From Hormoscilla sp. (GTDB taxonomy: Bacteria; Cyanobacteriota; Cyanobacteriia; Cyanobacteriales; Desertifilaceae): a DNA stretch of 64,000 nt. This document shows, in pieces, positions 23,020-34,288 of this stretch. The stretch lies in NCBI GenBank assembly GCA_051439505.1, contig JBFRWI010000208.1:16151-80150 (forward strand), read 5' to 3'. The position numbers and the translations under genes were made by a program. Under the pieces are notes generated by a model. That model was given only the letters and a program-made list of their open reading frames with translations, searched no databases and was not told where the DNA came from. Within the stretch, counting starts at the first letter, position 1, and every line of letters starts with the position of its first letter.

Positions 23020-24189
23020 ATGTCCCAAAATAATCGTAACTCCAATCCTATCTATCTGCTCGGGGCGATCGCAGGCATAATCAGTGCGATCGTCACTGTA
23101 CTGACTTACCTGGATATCAAACCTTCTTCCCTTATTCCTGCTACTGAGACAACAAAAGAGCCAACTTCTGCATCAACGAAAAAACCAACTCAAGGTCCTA
23201 CTCCCAGTTCGCCAACTCCTAGTTCTACCCCAAGGAGTCAACCAAAAGTCATCCCTGCCTCACGGGTTGACTGGAAAAAGGCGACTCTTGCCACAACCCT
23301 CAGCGGCCATTCAGGATCCTCCGTCTTATCCGTCGCGATCGGCCCTAATGGTAAAACTTTAGCCAGTGGCAGTAAAAACGGTATTATCAAAATCTGGAGT
23401 TTGGAGACATTTCGAGAAATTGCTACCCTCACCAGGCATTCAGGCCCTGTCTATTCCGTCGCGATCAGCCCCGATGGCAAGACTTTAGTCCGTGGCAGTT
23501 GGAAAACTATCAATCTCTGGAGCTTGGAGACATTCGGACTAATCGCTACTCTCACCGGGCATTCACACTCTGTCTATTCCGTCGCGATCAGCCCCGATGG
23601 CAAGACTTTAGCCAGTAGCAGTTCAGACAAGACTATCAAACTCTGGAGTTTGGAGTCATTGAGCGAAATCGCTAATCTCCCCTGGTGGCGGCGTTCACAG
23701 ATATTCTATTCCGTCGCGTTCAGCCCCGATGGCAAGACTTTAGCCAGTGGCAGTCAATACGGTGCTATCAGCATCTGGAGTTTGGAGAAATTGCAAGAAG
23801 AAATTTCTCTTCCTACCAGGTATCTTCAATCTATCTGGTCTGTCGCCTTCAGCCCTGATGGCAAGACTTTAGTCAGTGGCAGTAGTGACAAGACCATCAA
23901 AATCTGGAGTTGGGAGACATCCCGAGAAATTGCTCTCAAACCTTGGTTTTGGTCTTCAGACTACTCTGTAAAGTCCGTCGCGATCAGCCCCGATGGCAAG
24001 ACTTTAGCCAGTGGCAATTCTGACGGTACTATCAAACTCTGGAGTTTGGAGACATTTCGACAAATCACTACCCTCAAGGGGCATTCATCCTCTGTCAATT
24101 CTGTCGCGTTCAGCCCCGATGGCAAGACTTTAGTCAGTGGCAGTAGTGACGGGACTATCAAGATTTGGCGGACAAGATCGAGTAACTAA
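23020..24189 (+). CDS. Membrane-anchored WD40-repeat protein
   Basis: N-terminal TM helix, P/S/T-rich linker, seven SVA(I/F)xPxGKTL...IxIW repeats. Confidence 0.92.
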   Translation: MSQNNRNSNPIYLLGAIAGIISAIVTVLTYLDIKPSSLIPATETTKEPTSASTKKPTQGPTPSSPTPSSTPRSQPKVIPASRVDWKKATLATTLSGHSGSSVLSVAIGPNGKTLASGSKNGIIKIWSLETFREIATLTRHSGPVYSVAISPDGKTLVRGSWKTINLWSLETFGLIATLTGHSHSVYSVAISPDGKTLASSSSDKTIKLWSLESLSEIANLPWWRRSQIFYSVAFSPDGKTLASGSQYGAISIWSLEKLQEEISLPTRYLQSIWSVAFSPDGKTLVSGSSDKTIKIWSWETSREIALKPWFWSSDYSVKSVAISPDGKTLASGNSDGTIKLWSLETFRQITTLKGHSSSVNSVAFSPDGKTLVSGSSDGTIKIWRTRSSN

Positions 24190-24236
24190 AAGGGAAAAGT
24201 GGGAAAGGTGGTTCGCCACGGCAGAGAAGAGATAAT

Positions 24237-24572
24237 CTAACCAACAGCGTAGGGAGTAAACTTCCGCATAAACGGAGAATGAAACCCGATAACTATGTCC
24301 TGGTTGTCTACGCCTCTTGCTACTAATTCAGCCGCCAAGTCTATCTCCGTTGCATTCCACTGAATCCAGATTTTTTCATCTTTGATATCCAAATGAATTA
24401 TACAACTATGTATCCAGGTTTGCCGGTCCCAACCCAGGTAAACAATTTGGTAATGATTCCGTTCGACATCGAAAATCGTTTCAACTTCTATTTCACCATG
24501 TGCGGGCTTGTGTTGACTGTAATCTAATAACAATTCTTGAATGCAATGACGATATGCTTCTAGTTTTTCCAT
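24237..24572 (-). CDS. XisI-family protein
   Basis: FDVERNHYQIVYLGW, IIHLDIKDEKIWIQ, DIVIGFHSP and YAVG. Confidence 0.9.
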   Translation of the reverse strand: MEKLEAYRHCIQELLLDYSQHKPAHGEIEVETIFDVERNHYQIVYLGWDRQTWIHSCIIHLDIKDEKIWIQWNATEIDLAAELVARGVDNQDIVIGFHSPFMRKFTPYAVG

Positions 24573-24598: not shown

Positions 24599-25020
24599 AT
24601 GCAACGCAAATAACATATATTGGTTGGGTTTGGTCTCCTGGCCCGCCGTGGGTTCAAACCCACGGCTAATAGCTAAAGTGGGTTAAAACCCACTGGAAGC
24701 ATTATCGCTGACAGGATTTAGTCTACAATCTTGAAAAATATTCGGTACATTCGGTACCTTATGCTGCACGGATGCGAGGGGAGGCGGGAGCCTCAGAAGA
24801 GCCTTCCCAGGTAGCACCCGTCGCAGAGGGGAAATTATATAACATATATTGGTTGGGTTTCGTGCCTCTACCCAACCTACAGGCGATCGCCATATTTTGA
24901 AAGAAAAAATTACAATTGTTTAATCATTATCTTTTCTCAGTCGGTTTCAACCGACTTTAGCTATTAGCCGGGGGTTTGAACCCCCGGCGGGCTAACAGCG
25001 AAGTGAGAAGTGAATTGTAA

Positions 25021-26613
25021 TTAATCGACCTCAGACTCAGACAAAGTCAAAGTCAAAGGTAAATTTGGTTCTACAGGTAGAGAAGCAACAGATTCTGTCT
25101 GGACGATCGCGGCTTGGAGGAGGGGAGTGCGAGAGATAGAATCATTAGCGATAGTAAAGAGGGGGTTAGAAAGAATGCCCCCCAGAGAGGTAGCAATCAA
25201 AGACAGCACCAAACCCACTTGTAAAGGTCGCATACCGGGAATATTCCAGCGCACTTCCGGGTAATTTTTCACCGCCTCGGACATTTCCTGGGGTTCCTTG
25301 ACCACCATCATCTTGACAACGCGGATGTAATAGTAGATGGAAACCACGCTAGTAACTAACCCCAGAATCACCAAGGCGTAAAGTCCAGCTTGCCAACCTG
25401 CCCAGAACAGGTAAATTTTCCCGAAGAAACCAACCAAAGGCGGTATCCCTCCCAAGGAAAGCAGACAGATGCTTAACCCCAAAGTCAGCAGCGGGTCTTT
25501 TTGATATAAACCGGCATAGGCGCTAATTTGGTCGCTACCCGTCCGCAGGGAGAAGAGGATCACGCAGGTGAAGCCCCCTAAATTCATGAATAGGTAAACT
25601 ATCAGGTACAAGACCATGCTGGAATATCCCGCTTGGGTGCCTGCCAGAAAACCAATCATCACGAAACCAGCTTGACCGATAGAAGAATAAGCCAATAGTC
25701 GCTTCATGCTAGTTTGGGCCAGGGCGACCACGTTACCCAAGACCATGCTGAGAACCGCCAGGGCCGTAAAGACCAAATGCCATTGTTCCGATACCGGGGG
25801 AAAGGCCGTCAGCAGCAGACGGATGGCCAGGGCGAAACCTGCCGCCTTGGAACCTACCGAGAGGAAGGCCACTACCGGGGTGGGAGACCCTTCGTATACG
25901 TCCGGCGTCCATTGGTGGAAGGGGACCGCCGAGATCTTAAAGCCGATACCGGCGATAACAAACACCAGGGCGATGACTAAACCGATATTAGAACCGCCGC
26001 TGCTATCTGCTATCTGGGATGCGATCGCGCCCAGAGTGGTCTCGCCGCCAGACAAACCGTATAATAAGGAGGTGCCGTAGAGGAAGATAGCGGAACTGGC
26101 CGCGCCGATCAGCAGGTATTTCAAAGCCGCTTCATTGGAACGGGGGTCGCGCTTCAGGTATCCAGTCAGCAGGTAGGAAGAGATACTGAGGGTTTCCAGG
26201 GAGACAAAGATCGTCACCAACTCGTCGGCACCGGAGAGAAACATGGCTCCCAGGGTGGCGGTGAGCAAAATGCTGATAAATTCTCCCAAGGCACTGCCCG
26301 TCTCTTCCACGTAGGTAACGGACATTAAAATAGTCACCAGAGCTGACAGGGCGATGATACCCCGAAAGATTACGCTCAGGGCATCGCCGTTAAAGCTTCC
26401 CAGAAAAGCGATCGGGTTTTCCGTATCCCATTGGAAATACAGGGCGACGATCGCACCTGCCAGTCCCGCGATCGCGAGATAGGGAGTCCAGCGAGAGGAG
26501 GATCTGCCAGCTATGAGGTCCGCCATCAATACCGCCAGGAGAGTTGCGATCACGATCATCTCTGGCAAAATCGTCCCAGCGTTGAGCTGGGCAGCAAGTG
26601 TAGCAAAATCCAT
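25021..26613 (-). CDS. ndhB: NAD(P)H-quinone oxidoreductase subunit 2 (NdhB)
   Basis: [31 protein letters not shown] and KRLLAYSSI. Confidence 0.97.
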
Positions 26614-26942: not shown

Positions 26943-27041
26943 CTTCTCTATTTTAAGTTAAATCTGTGTTGCCTACATTCTGGTGGGCGATGCCCACCCT
27001 ACATCTAACTGTGTCGCCAACCTTCTGGTGGGCGATGCACA

Positions 27042-27764
27042 CTAACTCTGCACCGAAAACTCATCTGGGTCAATGTCCCAATTCACCCATTTTATCGCAT
27101 CCCTCGCCGATCTTATATTAGGCGGGACTCGTATTGCATGAATATATCCCGTGCTGGGGCAAGTCATCTTTAACAGATGCATTCGTTCCCAATCTAAATT
27201 AGCGTTTATTCTCAATAACTCGTATTCTTGCCAAGTATCTAATGAAGTTGCTTTCAACTCCTGGCAAATGCGATCGTAACCTATTCCTTGAATTAACACT
27301 CGCCTCAGTTCCGCGTTCTCCTCTGATAATAGCCATTCTGCACGCCACTGTTCGGGATGCACCTGACCGTATGCTGCTGGTAATCTTACCCCATGATGGG
27401 CATAGACCCTGGACCCATCTGCAAATTCTATAGCAGGTTCTCCTTCTGCATGGATGCGTTGTTCGTTTTCCAAGCGGATAACCCGAGGCCGATCGCACAC
27501 CCAACAAACATTTCTAAAAGGAAAAATACAGCCACTATTTTTAGCCAGAGCTTTATACAATTCCCATACTTTTTGATTGTGAACGCAATTTAATACCTCA
27601 ACACAGAAGTCTATATAACTTACATTTACCTTAACTATGTTACTCAAGCGCAAATCTTCATTCATACTTATAATTCTTTCCAGTCCTCGGTTAACAAAAA
27701 CAAATAAGCTCCTATCTAGTCTTTCTCTTATACTTAAGTCTATTTGCATGGTGATTAATTGCAA
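27042..27764 (-). CDS. DUF6745-type protein, C-terminal half (continues 27776-28975 in the -1 frame)
   Basis: VCDRP..IRL..RIHAEGEPAIEFADG..VYAHHGV and ENAELRRVLIQGIGY...LLKMTCPSTG.IHAIRVPP...WVNWDIDPDEFSVQS. Confidence 0.75.
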   Translation of the reverse strand: MQLITMQIDLSIRERLDRSLFVFVNRGLERIISMNEDLRLSNIVKVNVSYIDFCVEVLNCVHNQKVWELYKALAKNSGCIFPFRNVCWVCDRPRVIRLENEQRIHAEGEPAIEFADGSRVYAHHGVRLPAAYGQVHPEQWRAEWLLSEENAELRRVLIQGIGYDRICQELKATSLDTWQEYELLRINANLDWERMHLLKMTCPSTGYIHAIRVPPNIRSARDAIKWVNWDIDPDEFSVQS

Positions 27765-27775
27765 AAGGATTTCTC

Positions 27776-28975
27776 TTATTTCTTTATTGAATACTCGGAT
27801 AAAAAAATATTACTAGAAATATTTCTCTCCAATTCTCGCCTGCTTTTCTGTTCTGTCCAAGCTTGTTCCCAGCTATCACAAAAAATTATCTCTGGTTCTT
27901 GGTAGCCAAGAATATCGTATATTCCTTTTACCGCATCAGCAGCTAATGGGCGATCGATGGGATCTGTACACATAGCTATGCGGGTCCATTTTTCCCGATA
28001 TACAGGAATTAGCGACTTTTCCTTACGAGTAAGTTTATTAATAAAGACCGGTCTTACGTTTTGCAATTTATTTTTACTAATGTCAAGCATAATAAGCTTA
28101 CTCAGGTTCCCTATTTCTGGCGGCAATATCCTTAGTTGATTCCCACTGACATTGATCTGGCTTATTTCACTCATTTTTTCTATTTTTAATGGCAAACTTT
28201 CTAGTTGATTTTCTTGTAAATAAAGACCAGTAAGTTGGCTCAGTTCTACAATTTCTGGCGGCAAGCTCTTTAATTTATTTTTACTAACGTCAAGCATAGT
28301 AAGCTTACTCAGTTTACCTATTTCTGGCGGCAATATCCTGAGTTGATTTTCACTGACATTCAGCCGGCTCATTTCACTCAGATTGTCAATTTTGAATGGC
28401 AAACTTTCCAGTTGATTTTCTTTTAAGTAAAGACCAGTAAGTTGGCTCAGTTCTACAATTTCTGGCGGCAAGCTCTTTAGTTGATTGCCAGTGAGGTAAA
28501 GTTGTGTAAGGTTAGTCAGTTTTCCTATCTCCCGGGGCAAGCTCTTTAATTGAGTGCGACTCAGCACAAGCATTTTCAGGTTACTCAGTTGCATTATCTC
28601 CGGCGGCAAGCTGCTGAGTTGATTGCCACCGATGTCAAGCACTTGTAGGTTACTCAGTTGTACGATCGCCGGCGGCAAGCTGGTTAATTTATTTTCACTG
28701 ATGTCCAGTTGAGTGAGGTTACTCAGTTGCACTATCTGGTGCGGCAAGCTGCTTAATTTATTTTCACGGACTTTCAGCTTTGTCAGCTTACTCAATTGTC
28801 CAATCTCTGGTGGTAGGCTCGTCAGTTGATTGCGACCGAGATGCAGCTCAGTGAGGTTAGTCAGTTTCCCTATTTCTGGGAGCAATCTCCTTATTCCCTC
28901 ACTGCTGAGGTCCAGCTTGGTTTTCTTCTCTCTCGCGGCCCGTTCAATTACTTCCAACAGTTCCTCGTTCGTCAT
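27776..28975 (-). CDS. Leucine-rich repeat protein with DUF6745-family N-terminal module (frameshifted relative to 27042-27764)
   Basis: About 13 LxxLxLxxNxLxxLPPEI 23-mers, then KLT..EKSLIPVYREKW..IA..T.PIDR..A..AVK..Y...G..EPEIIFCDS. Confidence 0.85.
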   Translation of the reverse strand: MTNEELLEVIERAAREKKTKLDLSSEGIRRLLPEIGKLTNLTELHLGRNQLTSLPPEIGQLSKLTKLKVRENKLSSLPHQIVQLSNLTQLDISENKLTSLPPAIVQLSNLQVLDIGGNQLSSLPPEIMQLSNLKMLVLSRTQLKSLPREIGKLTNLTQLYLTGNQLKSLPPEIVELSQLTGLYLKENQLESLPFKIDNLSEMSRLNVSENQLRILPPEIGKLSKLTMLDVSKNKLKSLPPEIVELSQLTGLYLQENQLESLPLKIEKMSEISQINVSGNQLRILPPEIGNLSKLIMLDISKNKLQNVRPVFINKLTRKEKSLIPVYREKWTRIAMCTDPIDRPLAADAVKGIYDILGYQEPEIIFCDSWEQAWTEQKSRRELERNISSNIFLSEYSIKK

Positions 28976-28998
28976 TTGCTTACCTCCCCCTACTGTAC

Positions 28999-30453
28999 CT
29001 AACTCTGTACCGAAAACTCATCTGGGTCAATTTCCCAGTTCACCCATCTTATCGCCTCCCTTGCTGATTCGACATCCGGGGGAACTCGGAGAGCATGAAT
29101 ATATTTTGTACTCGGGCAAGTCATCTTTAACAGATAAATTTGCTCCACATCCACATCCCCATCTATTCTTAACAACTGATATTCTCGCCAAGTATCCAAT
29201 TCTTTTGCTTGCAACTCCTGGCAAATTCTGCCGTAACCGATTTCCTGAATTAGCAAGCGCCTGACTTCTGCATTCTTCTCCGATAATAGCCATTCGGCAC
29301 GCCATCTGGATGGATGGCATTCTCGGTATTTTTTTGTTAACAGCACTCCATTGACAACAATCATGAGGTCATGCAACTGTCGTACTTCTGATGGCAAGCT
29401 CATTAATGTCTCTCTATTAATTACCAGCTCTCTGAGATTAGTCATTTTTTTAATCTCTGGTGGTAATTTTGTCAAGGGATTGCCAATACAGTTGAACTCT
29501 TTTAGTTTATGCAATCTCCCTATTTCTGCTGGTAATTTTTCTATCTGATTTCTCGCAATATTCAACCTCTCAATGTTAATTAATTTCCCTATCTCTGGCG
29601 GCAAATTATTTAATTTGTTTCCATCAACATCAAGGTCATTAATTGATTTTATATTACCCATCTCTGCTGGCAAACTATTTAAATTATTAAAAGCAATATT
29701 GAGAACGGTTAGGTTCGGCAATTGGCAAATCCCTAGCGGCAACATAGTAAATTTATTTAGTCCGAGGTACAGGTTGCTCAGATAGGTCAATTTCCCAAGC
29801 TCAACCGGCAAGCTAGTCAGTCTATTTATATGCAAATAAAGCCGGACAAGAGATGATAAATTTCCGATTTCTGGCGGCAAACTTTCCAGTCTATTTTCCT
29901 GAAGTTCGAGGGTTGTCAGAGCAGTCAAATTCCCTATTTCTGGCGGCAAACCTTTCAGTCCATTGTCCCCTAGTCTTAGCTCCATCAGAGCAGTCAATTC
30001 TCCGATTTCTGGCGGCAAGCTTCTCAGTCCGGTTCTCGTAATTATTAGCCTCTTAAGATTTCGCAATTGTCCGATTTCTGGCGGCAAGCTTCTTATTCTA
30101 TTATTCCAGATGTTCAGCTCTCTTAGGTGAGTCAGTTGACAAATTACTGGTGGCAAGCTTCTGAATGGATTATTACTGAGGTCAACCCGCTTCAGGTTAG
30201 TCAGTTTCTCCATTGTTGGAGGTAAGCTCGTTAATTGATTGCCACTGATGTCAAGCTCAGTCAGGTTAGTCAGGTTGCCTATTTCTGCTGGCAAGCTCGT
30301 CAGATCGTTCCTCGCCATATTTAGCATAGTCAGATCCCGAAGTTGTCCGATTTCTGGCGGCAATCTCCTGATTTTTTGGCTGCTGAGGTCCAACTTTGTT
30401 ACCTTCTCTCTCGCGGCCCGTTCAATTACTTGCAGCAGTTCCTCGTTCGTCAT
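28999..30453 (-). CDS. Leucine-rich repeat protein with DUF6745-type C-terminal module
   Basis: About 15 LRRs fused directly to HP..WRAEWLLSEKNAEVRRLLIQEIGY...LLKMTCPST...RVPP...WVNWEIDPDEFSVQS. Confidence 0.9.
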   Translation of the reverse strand: MTNEELLQVIERAAREKVTKLDLSSQKIRRLPPEIGQLRDLTMLNMARNDLTSLPAEIGNLTNLTELDISGNQLTSLPPTMEKLTNLKRVDLSNNPFRSLPPVICQLTHLRELNIWNNRIRSLPPEIGQLRNLKRLIITRTGLRSLPPEIGELTALMELRLGDNGLKGLPPEIGNLTALTTLELQENRLESLPPEIGNLSSLVRLYLHINRLTSLPVELGKLTYLSNLYLGLNKFTMLPLGICQLPNLTVLNIAFNNLNSLPAEMGNIKSINDLDVDGNKLNNLPPEIGKLINIERLNIARNQIEKLPAEIGRLHKLKEFNCIGNPLTKLPPEIKKMTNLRELVINRETLMSLPSEVRQLHDLMIVVNGVLLTKKYRECHPSRWRAEWLLSEKNAEVRRLLIQEIGYGRICQELQAKELDTWREYQLLRIDGDVDVEQIYLLKMTCPSTKYIHALRVPPDVESAREAIRWVNWEIDPDEFSVQS

Positions 30454-30900
30454 TTGCTTACCTCCCCTGGCGCTTTCACTTCAATCAGAGGATTCTTTTG
30501 CCGTCTTTCTTGCCACTCTAACACTTGCACTATTCCCTCCATATCCTCAACTCAGATCTCGGGAAACTCTCCTTCCCGATCGCCATCCCTCTCCTTCTGA
30601 CTTTGCTGCTCCATATTTCCTTAGTCAAGATCTCCCCAACTATTGGGCATCCGCTCTCGGACTCCTCACATTCTCACAATAAATTAGCTTCGTAAGGACT
30701 GTCGATGCTGCTGCCTGTAGGATTTTTCGTGACATCAAATCCTGCCAATAGCAACAAGAGCCTGCATGTTGCCTCTGCTAGTTAGCAGATAGAGCCGCCT
30801 CCAGAGCGATCGCCCCGGAGGACTATAATTAGCTAAAAGATGCGGCAGCGCCACCGTGCTGCCAGCGATACCGGGAGCCTCAATAAAGTCATGGACCACC

Positions 30901-31197
30901 CTAGTCGGCCACATATCGCCATCCCTGGGGTTCGTATTCGCGCTGAATGCGGACCATCCAGTCCCCTTGAGGAATTTCAATCGCGTGATGTTCTTCGTGG
31001 GTTAGCATTGCCGTTTCAGAAAAGACACGGAGATAAAGAGTGCCATCCTTTTCGTACAACTCAGCCTGTCCGTCGCTGATCCGGTGAGAATGTCCAGTCA
31101 CTTCCCCTTCTGCTAGAGTCAAGTGGGACAGCTTATCTCCAACGATCTTCTCTTTGGTAGAGAGCAAAAGCACATCGCCTTGTCGAATCGGTTGCAT
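30901..31197 (-). CDS. Small His-rich 'RQGD' protein usually found beside DUF6745 genes
   Basis: IRQGDVLL, LAEGEVTGHSH, LTHEEH and IQREY; strong RBS GGAGG. Confidence 0.85.
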   Translation of the reverse strand: MQPIRQGDVLLLSTKEKIVGDKLSHLTLAEGEVTGHSHRISDGQAELYEKDGTLYLRVFSETAMLTHEEHHAIEIPQGDWMVRIQREYEPQGWRYVAD

Positions 31198-31654: not shown

Positions 31655-34288
31655 ATGTCAACGCTTGTAATTGTCGAATCTCCGACCAAAGCCCGTACCA
31701 TACGGAACTTCCTGCCCTCTGACTATCATGTAGAGGCATCAATGGGTCACGTGCGCGACCTGCCCTCTTCTGCTGACGAAATTCCCGAAGCTGTTAAAGG
31801 AGAAAAATGGGCGCAGCTGGGTGTTAACGTCGAGGCGGACTTTGAGCCACTGTATGTTGTCCCCAAAAATAAAAAAAAGGTAGTCACGGAACTGAAAAAA
31901 GCCCTCAAGCAGGCTGATGAACTGATTCTGGCAACAGACGAAGACCGCGAAGGTGAAAGCATCAGCTGGCATCTTCTCTCATTGCTGAAGCCAAAAGTCC
32001 CCATTAAGCGAATGGTGTTCCACGAAATCACCCGGGAAGCGATACGTCAAGCCCTGTCGGACTGCCGGAATATTGACATGCAACTCGTCCACGCTCAAGA
32101 AACCAGGCGGATTTTAGACCGACTGGTGGGCTACACCCTGTCTCCCCTGCTGTGGAAAAAAATTTCCTCGGGATTATCAGCCGGACGGGTACAATCTGTA
32201 TCCGTCCGGTTACTGGTGTTGCGGGAACGTCAACGGCGAGCCTTCCGCCAAGGAAGCTACTGGAACCTCAAAGCCATTCTCGATATTGAGCATACCTCTT
32301 TTGAGGCGCGATTAGTGACCCTAGCAGGCTCTAAGGTGGCCACGGGCAGCGATTTTGACCCGGATACCGGACAAATTGCTTCTGGTAGAAATGTCAGACT
32401 GTTAAATGAAGCAGATGCCAAAGAACTGCAAGCCCGACTCTCCGGTAAAACCTGGAGAGTGTCCTCCGTTGACGAACGACCGGTGACCCGATCGCCCTCA
32501 CCTCCCTTTACCACCTCAACCCTGCAACAGGAGGCGAACCGGAAGCTGGGGCTATCCGCCAGAGATACGATGCGGACAGCTCAAAGTCTCTACGAACAGG
32601 GCTATATTACCTATATGCGGACGGACTCCGTGCATTTGTCCGGGCAGGCGATCGCCGCCGCCCGATCTTGTGTAGAACTTAAGTATGGCCCCGAGTATCT
32701 CAGCCCGACACCGCGCCAGTACAAGACCAAAAGCAAAGGCGCCCAAGAAGCCCACGAAGCCATTCGCCCTGCTGGCAGCAGTTTCCGCACGCCGTCAGAG
32801 ACTCCTCTGACGGGCCGGGAACAACAGCTATACGACCTGATTTGGAAACGTACTGTCGCCACCCAAATGGCTGCCGCCAGGATTACTCAAATCATTATAC
32901 AGATGCAAGTAGAAGCGGCTGGATTCCGATCGACTGGTAAGCGAATTGATTTTCCTGGTTTCTTCCGTGCTTACGTAGAAGGTTCTGACGACCCCAATGG
33001 GGCTCTGGAAAACACCGAAGTGATTCTGCCACCCTTAAAGGTGGGAGATATTCCTAAATGTCGGGAATTAGAGGCCATCGGCCACGAAACTCAGCCTCCC
33101 GCCCGTTACACTGAGGCGTCCCTAGTGAAAACTCTGGAAAAAGAAGGCATTGGCCGTCCCAGCACCTACGCCAGCATCATCGGCACGATCGTCGATCGGG
33201 GCTATGCTCAAATAATCAACAAAGCCCTAGTGCCCACCTTCACGGCCTTTGCAGTCATCAGTCTACTAGAAACGCATTTTCCGGACCTGGTAGACACCCG
33301 CTTTACTTCCCGAATGGAGCGAACTCTAGATGACATCTCCACTGGGGAGGTGGACTGGCTTCCTTATCTACGAGAATTTTATTGCGGAGAAACCGGTCTG
33401 TCCAATCAGGTCAAGGAACAGGAAAGCCAAATTGACCCCAAACTGGCTCGCACTGTGGAACTGGTGGGCTTAGATGCTAAGGTCTGCATTGGCCGATTTG
33501 GCCCTTACATCGAAGTTGATAATGGATCTGGCCTGCTCAAAGCTTCCATTCCCAAAGACGTGACCCCCGATCGACTCGACTCCGAACAGGTAGAAGCGCT
33601 GCTGAAGCAGAAAGCCTCTGAACCGAAGGAACTGGGTCAGCATCCTGAAACCGGCGATACGATCTATCTCCTGAATGGCAACTATGGTCCCTACGTGCAG
33701 TTGGGTAATGGCGACAGTGAGAAGAAGAAAAAACCCAAGCGATCTTCTCTACCTAAAGGCGTCACTCCCGATCTGGTCACCCTGGAAATGGCCGTAGGAT
33801 TGTTGGCCCTGCCTCGTTTTCTGGGAGCGCACCCAGAAACAGCTGCTAAAGTCCAAGCTGGTTTGGGACGTTTCGGCCCTTACGTGGTTCACGACCAAGG
33901 CAAAGAAGGTAAAGATTATCGTTCGTTAAAGAAAGATGACAATGTCTTGACAATTGACCTTCAACGGGCATTGGAGTTACTCGCCGAACCGAAGAAGAGA
34001 CGTAATGGTAGCCGCAGTCAAAGGAAACCTTTACGAGAGTTGGGTACACATCCATCGGATGGAGAACCAGTGAATATCTACGATGGCCGTTACGGTCTTT
34101 ATGTCAATCATGGCAAAATTAATGTCACTTTAGCAGAGGGGATCGCAGCCGAGGATGTGACTCTGGATAACGCCTTGGAATTGATCGCAGCCAAGGCAAC
34201 GACCACTTCAAACTCTCGCAAGTCAAGTAAATCAACCGGGACTAAAAAGACCAGCGCCGAGAAGAAAAAGACTAGCGCTAATCAATAG
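31655..34288 (+). CDS. topA: DNA topoisomerase I
   Basis: [33 protein letters not shown] and [17 protein letters not shown]-terminal repeats. Confidence 0.97.

Follow-up and report, generated by a model that had tools for sequence, protein, structure and literature searches.

The closest described relatives of the locus reported here are adjacent, co-oriented gene pairs that encode a DUF6745 protein (PF20530; phrog_31813) and a small His-rich partner (phrog_27831), exemplified by gp174/gp175 of the Microcystis phage Ma-LMM01. These phage genes lie between those for a DNA polymerase and a uracil-DNA glycosylase, with which they are expressed, and both belong to expression subclass B5. No description of DUF6745/PF20530 or of Ma-LMM01 gp174 was found in the searched literature, a search whose scope ended short of subscription papers and bioRxiv supplements. 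The locus in the window, by which we mean the whole 64,000-nucleotide stretch of Hormoscilla sp. DNA analysed, encodes members of the same two families, and the phrog_27831-type partner, here termed RQGD, adjoins with its GHxH and HxEH motifs. The C-terminal module of DUF6745 and its terminal Thr/Ser are also as in the Ma-LMM01-type pair. In contrast with that pair, however, the module is carried here by leucine-rich repeat (LRR) proteins, one of which lacks all other parts of DUF6745, and of the plain (LRR-free) partner a remnant is left (Table 1).

Three other groups of LRR proteins invite comparison. Cyanobacterial Roco proteins (LRR-Roc-COR) share the MTxEELL N-cap and the 23-aa LRR type with the LRR genes here, and the resemblance proposed when the sequence was first read was confirmed within this genome, whose Roco gene (G000:C160; LRR, Roc, COR-A and COR-B) encodes the same N-cap. 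Unlike Roco proteins, LRR1 and the LRR2 parts gave no Pfam match to Roc or COR, both of which were detected in the C160 gene as positive control, and the DUF6745 module stands where they would be. In NLR-type proteins and other LRR immune sensors a variable repeat array is joined to a constant domain; these proteins are patchily distributed and turn over fast. The proteins described here are alike in all these respects, but their LRRs are N-terminal and come with neither a nucleotide-binding domain nor a known effector; no NACHT or NB-ARC NTPase was matched in Pfam, and LRR plus DUF6745 account for the proteins. The models for the LRR effectors and internalins XopAC, XopL, SspH2 and InlA show likeness in the LRR region only, with scores far under the curated cut-offs, and the proteins here have neither a secretion nor an effector domain.

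Table 1. Features of the cassette and its flanks, in window coordinates.
Feature	Position	Strand	Basis
ndhB (presumed)	25021..26613	-	downstream flank; translation
LRR2 3' part, shifted frame	27042..27809	-	middle region of DUF6745, then C-terminal module (27042-27392); E 2.5e-24
LRR2 5' part, 399 aa	27776..28975	-	N-cap, 13 repeats, N-terminal DUF6745 helices; ends in stop
A7 run (T7 on coding strand)	27801..27807	+	at frame break; differs between samples
LRR1 C-terminal module, 116 aa, predicted RQGD-docking domain	28999..29349	-	C-terminal half of DUF6745; phrog_31813, E 8.7e-19
LRR1, 484 aa, intact	28999..30453	-	MTNEELL N-cap, ~15 repeats of 23 aa, module fused directly
LRR1 ribosome-binding region	30454..30467	-	identical 14 nt precede LRR2 (28976-28989)
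Decayed 5' remnant of plain DUF6745 gene	30456..30727	-	tblastn
Ancestral spacer, RQGD to plain DUF6745 gene	30730..30900	-	DNA identity to G001
RQGD protein, 98 aa	30901..31197	-	phrog_27831, E 4.4e-16; all-beta model; single copy in genome
topA (presumed)	31655..34288	+	divergent upstream flank; translation

The cassette exists as first read apart from two points, a frameshift in LRR2 and a remnant gene, both overlooked in the sequence-only reading. That reading placed a contiguous run between ndhB and topA. The flanks hold, with genes that we take to be ndhB and topA from their translations, while contiguity does not, 447 bp separating RQGD from LRR1. The gene topA adjoins RQGD in the same-genus genome G001, in G025, in G015 and in four Nostoc loci, and the ndhB flank is likewise present in G025 and G015. 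The gap 3' of the 98-aa gene holds what is, judged by tblastn, the decayed remnant of the usual LRR-free DUF6745 partner of RQGD (78.8% identity to P0206 over 52 aa, E 2.5e-19; E 1.1e-12 to P0151), interrupted by stops and a frame change and truncated at the LRR1 ribosome-binding site. The spacer that precedes it is 75.5% identical over 184 nt of DNA to the corresponding spacer of G001 (locus L015). A scan for promoters and terminators remained at chance level (8 versus 7.9; 5 versus 4.1), and in the single RNA run (n=1) 0.06 of the words were present.

RQGD has the clustered His and Glu residues first remarked upon, its RQGD, GHSH and THEEHH motifs all being present. Among 99 sequences chosen for alignment by their likeness to the query, H38 and H67 are retained in all, H70 and E32 in 98, H36 in 97 and D8 and E69 in 94; the C-terminal residue (D98) is Asp in 96, and in several relatives the terminal V-x-D persists behind long inserts. 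These conserved candidate ligands probably hold a metal. A Cys-His site was considered and rejected because MTCPST has no conserved Cys (Cys in 13, Asn in 29 and Asp in 8 of 53 viral modules). The Cys mutant proposed from the first inspection thus targets a variable residue; the four His are conserved instead. The monomer model contains two very long strands (53-67 and 70-84) that look incomplete alone. Foldseek returned no match for RQGD at E<=0.001, and the best hit of a fold search had Z 3.6 (rmsd 4.1, 77 residues aligned). RQGD alone accounts for 3938 clusters at 50% identity. Neither RQGD nor LRR1 nor the 3' part of LRR2 contains a hydrophobic segment with a mean above 1.4.

The C-terminal module that was said to be common to both LRR proteins is indeed shared (81 of 116 amino acids identical; 79% DNA identity over 300 nt) and corresponds to positions 104-200 of the 206 in Pfam DUF6745. 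LRR1 scores 35.2 bits (model 104-200) and the LRR2 3' part 86.2 bits (30-201), both above the PF20530 cut-off of 27 bits; the RLHAEG..A middle region is absent from LRR1 and occurs in LRR2 only in the shifted frame. The module ends in Thr or Ser in 119 of 120 cellular matches and in 49 of 55 distinct viral proteins. PDB sequence searches gave no match and an Atlas search found only unnamed clusters. The best fold match of a DUF6745 model (P0134, pLDDT 89.9) reached Z 4.7 (rmsd 3.0, 60 aligned), mostly through residues 277-341 with other parts barely covered, and absence of a match is no proof of a new fold.

Co-folding, an early suggestion for this locus, places RQGD on the module. The complex model, built with the LRR2 chain (255 residues) rather than with LRR1, scored 0.78 (runs 0.78, 0.79 and 0.78) versus 0.00 for the best of three controls; 116 of 157 solved pairs attained the mark applied, a rough one here with our own alignments, as did 2 of 215 mismatched pairs. 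Contact agreement between runs was at least 94% and partner pLDDT at least 85. All confident RQGD contacts are predicted to fall within residues 140-255 of the chain, the segment kept by LRR1, and residue 140 is the joining point of LRR1 and of the direct fusions in G016 and G035. The LRR1 module matches that of LRR2 at 23 of 28 interface positions in the model. Neither sequence nor fold searches turned up a comparable solved complex, which makes it less likely that the score reflects a known one. The prediction supports docking of RQGD on the C-terminal module of DUF6745.

The distribution of the genes points the same way. All 11 RQGD-positive relatives carry the module, and in a sample of 221 genomes, in which RQGD is patchy (26 genomes at E<1e-10), the module accompanies it in 23, with two more having a divergent module nearby. 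Intact module proteins were present in G096 (99% complete, with an 812-aa LRR fusion) and G004, in which RQGD was not found; nor was it found in three of the four same-genus genomes. The LRR forms stand outside the core of the system, since of 13 regions around RQGD in relatives none has an LRR gene and 10 carry a plain DUF6745. This genome has seven full module tails versus one RQGD gene, and because of these counts we infer that one RQGD would serve several module proteins.

A ~250-aa single-chain protein with a C-terminal RQGD domain (HHalign 97.6%), from eight loci in distant members of the phylum, was considered as proof of partnership. To the eye its N-terminal half is module-like, yet its scores of 1.2% and 0.7% were no better than those of reversed or block-shuffled controls, and the protein is therefore not used as evidence; neither viral contigs nor annotated phages yielded the family. 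It could be argued from its conservation in non-photosynthetic relatives, and from the incomplete look of the RQGD strands, that the heterodimer serves in structure or metal handling, as a filament, a lattice or a metal store, and plays no part in conflict. Against this explanation, which we regard as very improbable, stand patchiness, heavy carriage by phages, N-terminal domains that vary and the frequency of pseudogenes.

Phage carriage is extensive, RQGD being encoded on at least 543 viral stretches. Co-occurrence extends to viruses, the module being present at 57 of 80 viral RQGD loci, and 20 of the remaining 23 end within a DUF6745 gene. The number of viral stretches with RQGD, together with the position and expression of gp174/gp175 in Ma-LMM01, would suit a pair that is a phage-side tool (for host takeover, counter-defence or as a replication accessory) captured by cyanobacteria, the cellular copies acting as decoys or regulators and the module as a tag by which RQGD could process or sequester the proteins fused to it; in very different proteins the module is indeed C-terminal and has a fixed end. 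Cellular copies, however, keep to a stable location next to topA across several genera, their RQGD proteins are 76-96% identical among the best 120 matches, and none of 59 viral module proteins has an LRR. The phage-side reading is improbable in our estimation, if less so than a purely structural one.

The LRR fusions are not an accident of one genome. They occur in nine other genomes, drawn from 20 regions mostly selected for long frames, and involve different LRR types; the best 120 module matches include 13 LRR and four GGDEF fusions, and WG-repeat fusions also exist. The two LRR genes here do, as described earlier, have near-identical ribosome-binding sites and N-caps (32 of 40 N-terminal residues), and the direct joining of repeats to module was borne out in LRR1. 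The differing LRR types, mainly, suggest several origins; a quick tree of the module has 10 label changes, of which only 2 are forced by strong branches. LRR1 and its orthologue P0122 differ at 22 of 38 positions on the concave face, at 15 of 63 exposed positions elsewhere (Fisher p 0.001, concave face versus other exposed) and at 7 of 116 in the module, although this is one orthologue pair and such variability is general among LRR proteins.

LRR2 was first read as a single protein with a full DUF6745 body; the body is there, but in another frame, collinear with the intact 625-aa P0223. The LRR frame, 399 aa long, ends in a stop at 27776 and overlaps the frame of the body at the A7 run. Of two deeply covered sister samples, run X2 (depth 212) has A7 as in the window and run X1 (depth 138) reads A8, an extra A that opens the LRR2 frame; the comparison is at contig level, where rare variants are dropped. 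An assembly error is unlikely because X2 carries A7 at depth 212, although X2 may be the source sample.

The broken LRR gene, the lost plain partner and the RQGD-less genomes of the same genus mean that decay fits too. The heterodimer could be real while domain shuffling, in filamentous cyanobacteria rich in repeats, gave rise to the LRR fusions as by-products, at a locus now decaying. The N-cap and LRR type are common to unrelated LRR and Roco genes of this genome, the G001 copies are frameshifted, and A7/T7 runs are frequent (1300 genome-wide). Against by-products stand the orthologues of both fusions (P0131 as well as P0122 for LRR1, and P0223; quick-tree supports 97 and 99), whose sister loci were not recovered in metagenome and genome scans, the conservation of the module (94%) versus an LRR face that differs at 58%, and the one joining boundary shared by direct fusions of different LRR types. 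We consider this account unlikely, yet the strongest of the alternatives.

A constant, probably metal-binding heterodimer with exchangeable recognition domains and a role in conflict is, in our judgement, about as apt to be right as wrong. The architecture first proposed, variable LRR arrays on a constant module with one small partner, holds on co-occurrence, the docking model and recurrent fusions. RQGD and the last ~116 residues of DUF6745 would form the heterodimer, the module contributing beta-strands and its extreme C-terminal tail beside the conserved His and acidic residues of RQGD. The part N-terminal to the module would offer a binding surface that can be exchanged, formed by a variable helical tract in plain DUF6745, by an LRR solenoid in the fusions and by other domains elsewhere. 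The LRRs may deliver a target to this common core, most probably during conflict, such as recognition of a phage or competitor protein, with fast gain and loss. At this locus, with the plain partner deleted, LRR1 would be the only intact neighbour and LRR2 may be switched on or off by one base. The proposal of an innate-immune or host-interaction system did not itself find confirmation: in PADLOC 2.0 four of five proteins were unmatched and the fifth had a weak match (E 0.027 over 35 aa), no effector domain was found in these proteins and no defence genes adjoin this locus, and the pair is common in phages. The searches that were run likewise found no housekeeping function for the pair.

A bolder reading, which we offer tentatively and think unlikely to be right in full, is that RQGD and the DUF6745 tail are an undescribed split metal-dependent effector, its fold unmatched in PDB searches, common to phages and hosts. 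The tail would be a portable tag licensing fused sensors to engage one catalytic partner, and filamentous cyanobacteria would have built an LRR receptor repertoire several times, switched by homopolymer slippage. DUF6745 and its partner are a large family without description in the searched literature, and the natural LRR fusions, which trim DUF6745 to the modelled partner-binding piece, define a minimal pair of 116 and 98 residues for expression, crystallisation and assay. Should the pair prove to be an effector core, phage and host would share a new sensor-effector format, used on both sides of their conflict.

The two LRR genes of the Hormoscilla cassette are built to a common plan, as the sequence-only reading had claimed: the 14 nt before the start codon are identical in LRR1 and LRR2, 32 of 40 N-terminal residues are common and the last 116 residues, here termed the module, agree at 81 positions. 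This tail is the second half of DUF6745 in Pfam and matches phrog_31813 in PHROGs, and the 98-aa, His-rich RQGD protein matches phrog_27831; both families are function-unassigned in PHROGs. The cassette belongs to the DUF6745/partner family rather than to the Roco proteins, the NLRs or the catalogued defence systems; the literature searched, subscription papers and bioRxiv supplements aside, yielded no publication about this family. The 6.47-Mb genome, judged cyanobacterial from its relatives, holds one RQGD (90% identical to its closest named match, annotated Hormoscilla), seven full modules and one module fragment. Elsewhere in this genome (G000:C112:15880-19354) lies a tandem pair of DUF6745 genes with a common hydrophobic segment, which suggests membrane-anchored forms.

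Cassette genes and neighbouring features in the window (ndhB and topA named from their translations)
Feature	Position	Strand	Context
RQGD gene, 98 aa	30901-31197	minus	between ndhB and topA
LRR1 gene, 484 aa, intact	28999-30453	minus	between ndhB and topA
LRR2 gene	start 28975	minus	between ndhB and topA
Near-duplicated block of three repeats	28086-28454		inside LRR2
Short direct repeat	26964-27042		directly behind LRR2 stop; ~30 matches elsewhere in genome
55-nt inverted arms, spacing 242 nt	24641-24992		dispersed repeat or MITE-like element; parts match 794 places in genome
WD40-repeat protein and XisI gene	23020-24572		downstream of ndhB; no link to cassette found

RQGD and the module, proposed to work as partners, do co-occur, in genome samples that include kin and are hence non-independent. 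Among 41 relatives RQGD is present in 11 and the module in 16, all 11 RQGD carriers having the module, and an alignment search found broken RQGD pieces in one of the five module-bearing relatives that lack an RQGD match. Of 221 phylum genomes, 26 contain RQGD at E<1e-10, 23 with a module match, two more with a divergent module nearby and one with a 26-residue piece; RQGD was not found in seven of the 30 module-positive genomes, four of which have fragments only, but one of the seven, G096, has an intact LRR fusion. Among the best 80 of 543 viral RQGD loci the module is adjacent in 57; in the other 23 the contig ends less than 1 kb downstream of RQGD, 20 of them inside a DUF6745 gene, which suggests that assemblies break at a tract that is hypervariable or repeated.

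RQGD itself takes several forms. Several RQGD proteins (L024, L026, L040, L159, P0244, P0249, P0251, P0252 and P0260) are interrupted by a long stretch of low-complexity sequence immediately ahead of the C-terminal tail, which is conserved. In three cyanobacterial genomes (L140-L142) a second subtype directly precedes a 232-aa protein (143 aa in L140) in which a short N-terminal stretch resembling LRRs accompanies the module. A 755-aa frame with an N-terminal RQGD domain (L138:2793-5060) has as a close neighbour a WG-repeat protein whose C-terminal end is a divergent module (L138:22-1659), an arrangement that is possibly a misassembly. Distant phylum members (L130-L137; for example L131:1741-2487, minus strand) encode a conserved protein of ~250 aa that has an RQGD domain at its C-terminus and 53 relatives, some matches being named Sericytochromatia; a diverged module may make up the N-terminal half, but profile tests for the module there were negative.

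Structure prediction supports binding of RQGD to the module. RQGD is modelled as an all-beta chain (pLDDT 87.9). In the model of plain DUF6745, the LRR-free form (pLDDT 89.9), helices at the N-terminal end are followed by a middle section of beta structure and then by the module; fold searches gave no clear solved-fold match for either protein. The co-folding prompted by the sequence-only reading docked RQGD with the 255-aa product of window positions 27042-27809 at a score of 0.78 versus 0.00 for the best control, on a measure whose mark is passed by 116 of 157 solved pairs and 2 of 215 mismatched ones, counts that apply only approximately when our own alignments are used. Contact agreement between runs was at least 94% and partner pLDDT at least 85. 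All confident contacts of the 255-aa chain (140-143, 164-168, 211, 219-220, 226-230, 241-246 and 250-255) fall inside the module, 23 of 28 contact residues being kept identically in LRR1, and those of RQGD include R5-D8, G31-T34, E69-H70, Q85-Y88 and D98. The modelled contacts would therefore place conserved residues and the fixed C-termini of both chains at the interface. The Cys of MTCPST, which the sequence-only reading put forward as a residue to mutate, is not constant, with Asn and Asp as alternatives; because the position varies it is unlikely to be a metal ligand and was dropped. That the pair is simply a structural or metal-handling unit seems to us very improbable.

The genes are co-oriented, as first described, and are not contiguous: the 447-bp gap between RQGD and LRR1 contains the ancestral spacer, 75.5% identical to that of a relative (G001), and a decayed piece of plain DUF6745 ending at the LRR1 ribosome-binding site. 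The usual partner of RQGD has been lost at this locus. Of 13 RQGD regions examined in relatives, 10 have plain DUF6745 directly behind RQGD and none has an LRR gene; topA adjoins in three, as also in four Nostoc loci. The core therefore consists of RQGD and plain DUF6745, located at an old site, and the LRR forms are additions to it. Immediately upstream of a DUF6745 gene in Nostoc sp. FACHB-152 a WGR-domain protein is encoded (L151:5751-8360).

These additions are not a one-genome accident. Among the best 120 of 1355 module matches, 13 carry LRRs and four GGDEF domains, and 20 regions picked mostly for long frames yielded LRR fusions of up to 1318 aa in nine other genomes, three beside RQGD; Microcoleus sp. 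D2_18a_B4 has a further one. At least two LRR types occur, each with a different cap: one has 23-aa repeats beneath a cap like that of Roco proteins, the other repeats of the internalin-like kind. In G016 and G035 LRRs join the module directly at the same boundary as in LRR1; among the other forms are WG-repeat, FGE-sulfatase, membrane-anchored and tandem ones. A quick module tree groups LRR1 and LRR2 each with its own orthologues and requires 10 label changes, just two of them imposed by strong branches. LRR1 and its orthologue P0122 differ at 22 of 38 positions on the concave face, at 15 of the 63 other exposed ones and at 7 of the 116 in the module. This agrees with a constant tail joined to a binding face that varies, but it concerns a single compared pair and is typical of LRRs.

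LRR2 has the LRRs, full DUF6745 body and module ascribed to it, in two frames rather than a single ORF: the first runs for 399 aa to a stop at 27776, the body lies in another, open from 27809 to 27042, and the two overlap at an A7 run (27801-27807). This site was compared in four sequencing runs of a single study; X2 (depth 212), possibly the source sample, matches the window, an extra A is present in X1 (depth 138), and X3 and X4 have scant or zero coverage. With the extra base LRR2 becomes 644 aa without a stop, collinear with its intact 625-aa relative P0223. The break is therefore genuine, and it varies between samples. At 28106 X1 also has Lys in place of Asn, which brings it closer to the sister repeat block. 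Programmed switching is a candidate only, since the genome contains 1300 A7/T7-type runs and run contigs lose rare variants. The partner remnant and this break would fit neutral LRR shuffling in a decaying locus, a rival reading that we rate as rather unlikely.

In phage Ma-LMM01 the pair is gp175/gp174, amid replication genes. PMC5780444 (supplementary Table S3) places the two genes in subclass B5 of cluster 2, rising by 3 h; B5 is described there together with the middle replication genes, and neither gene is mentioned in the main text. A phage tool captured by the host and acting on a tag is, in our estimate, improbable. The reading that we favour, at even odds, is that RQGD and the module form a constant heterodimer, in which contact between the chains probably completes a metal site of His and acidic residues; it carries exchangeable recognition domains and is most likely used in conflict. 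The LRR-module architecture is real, recurrent and open to testing.
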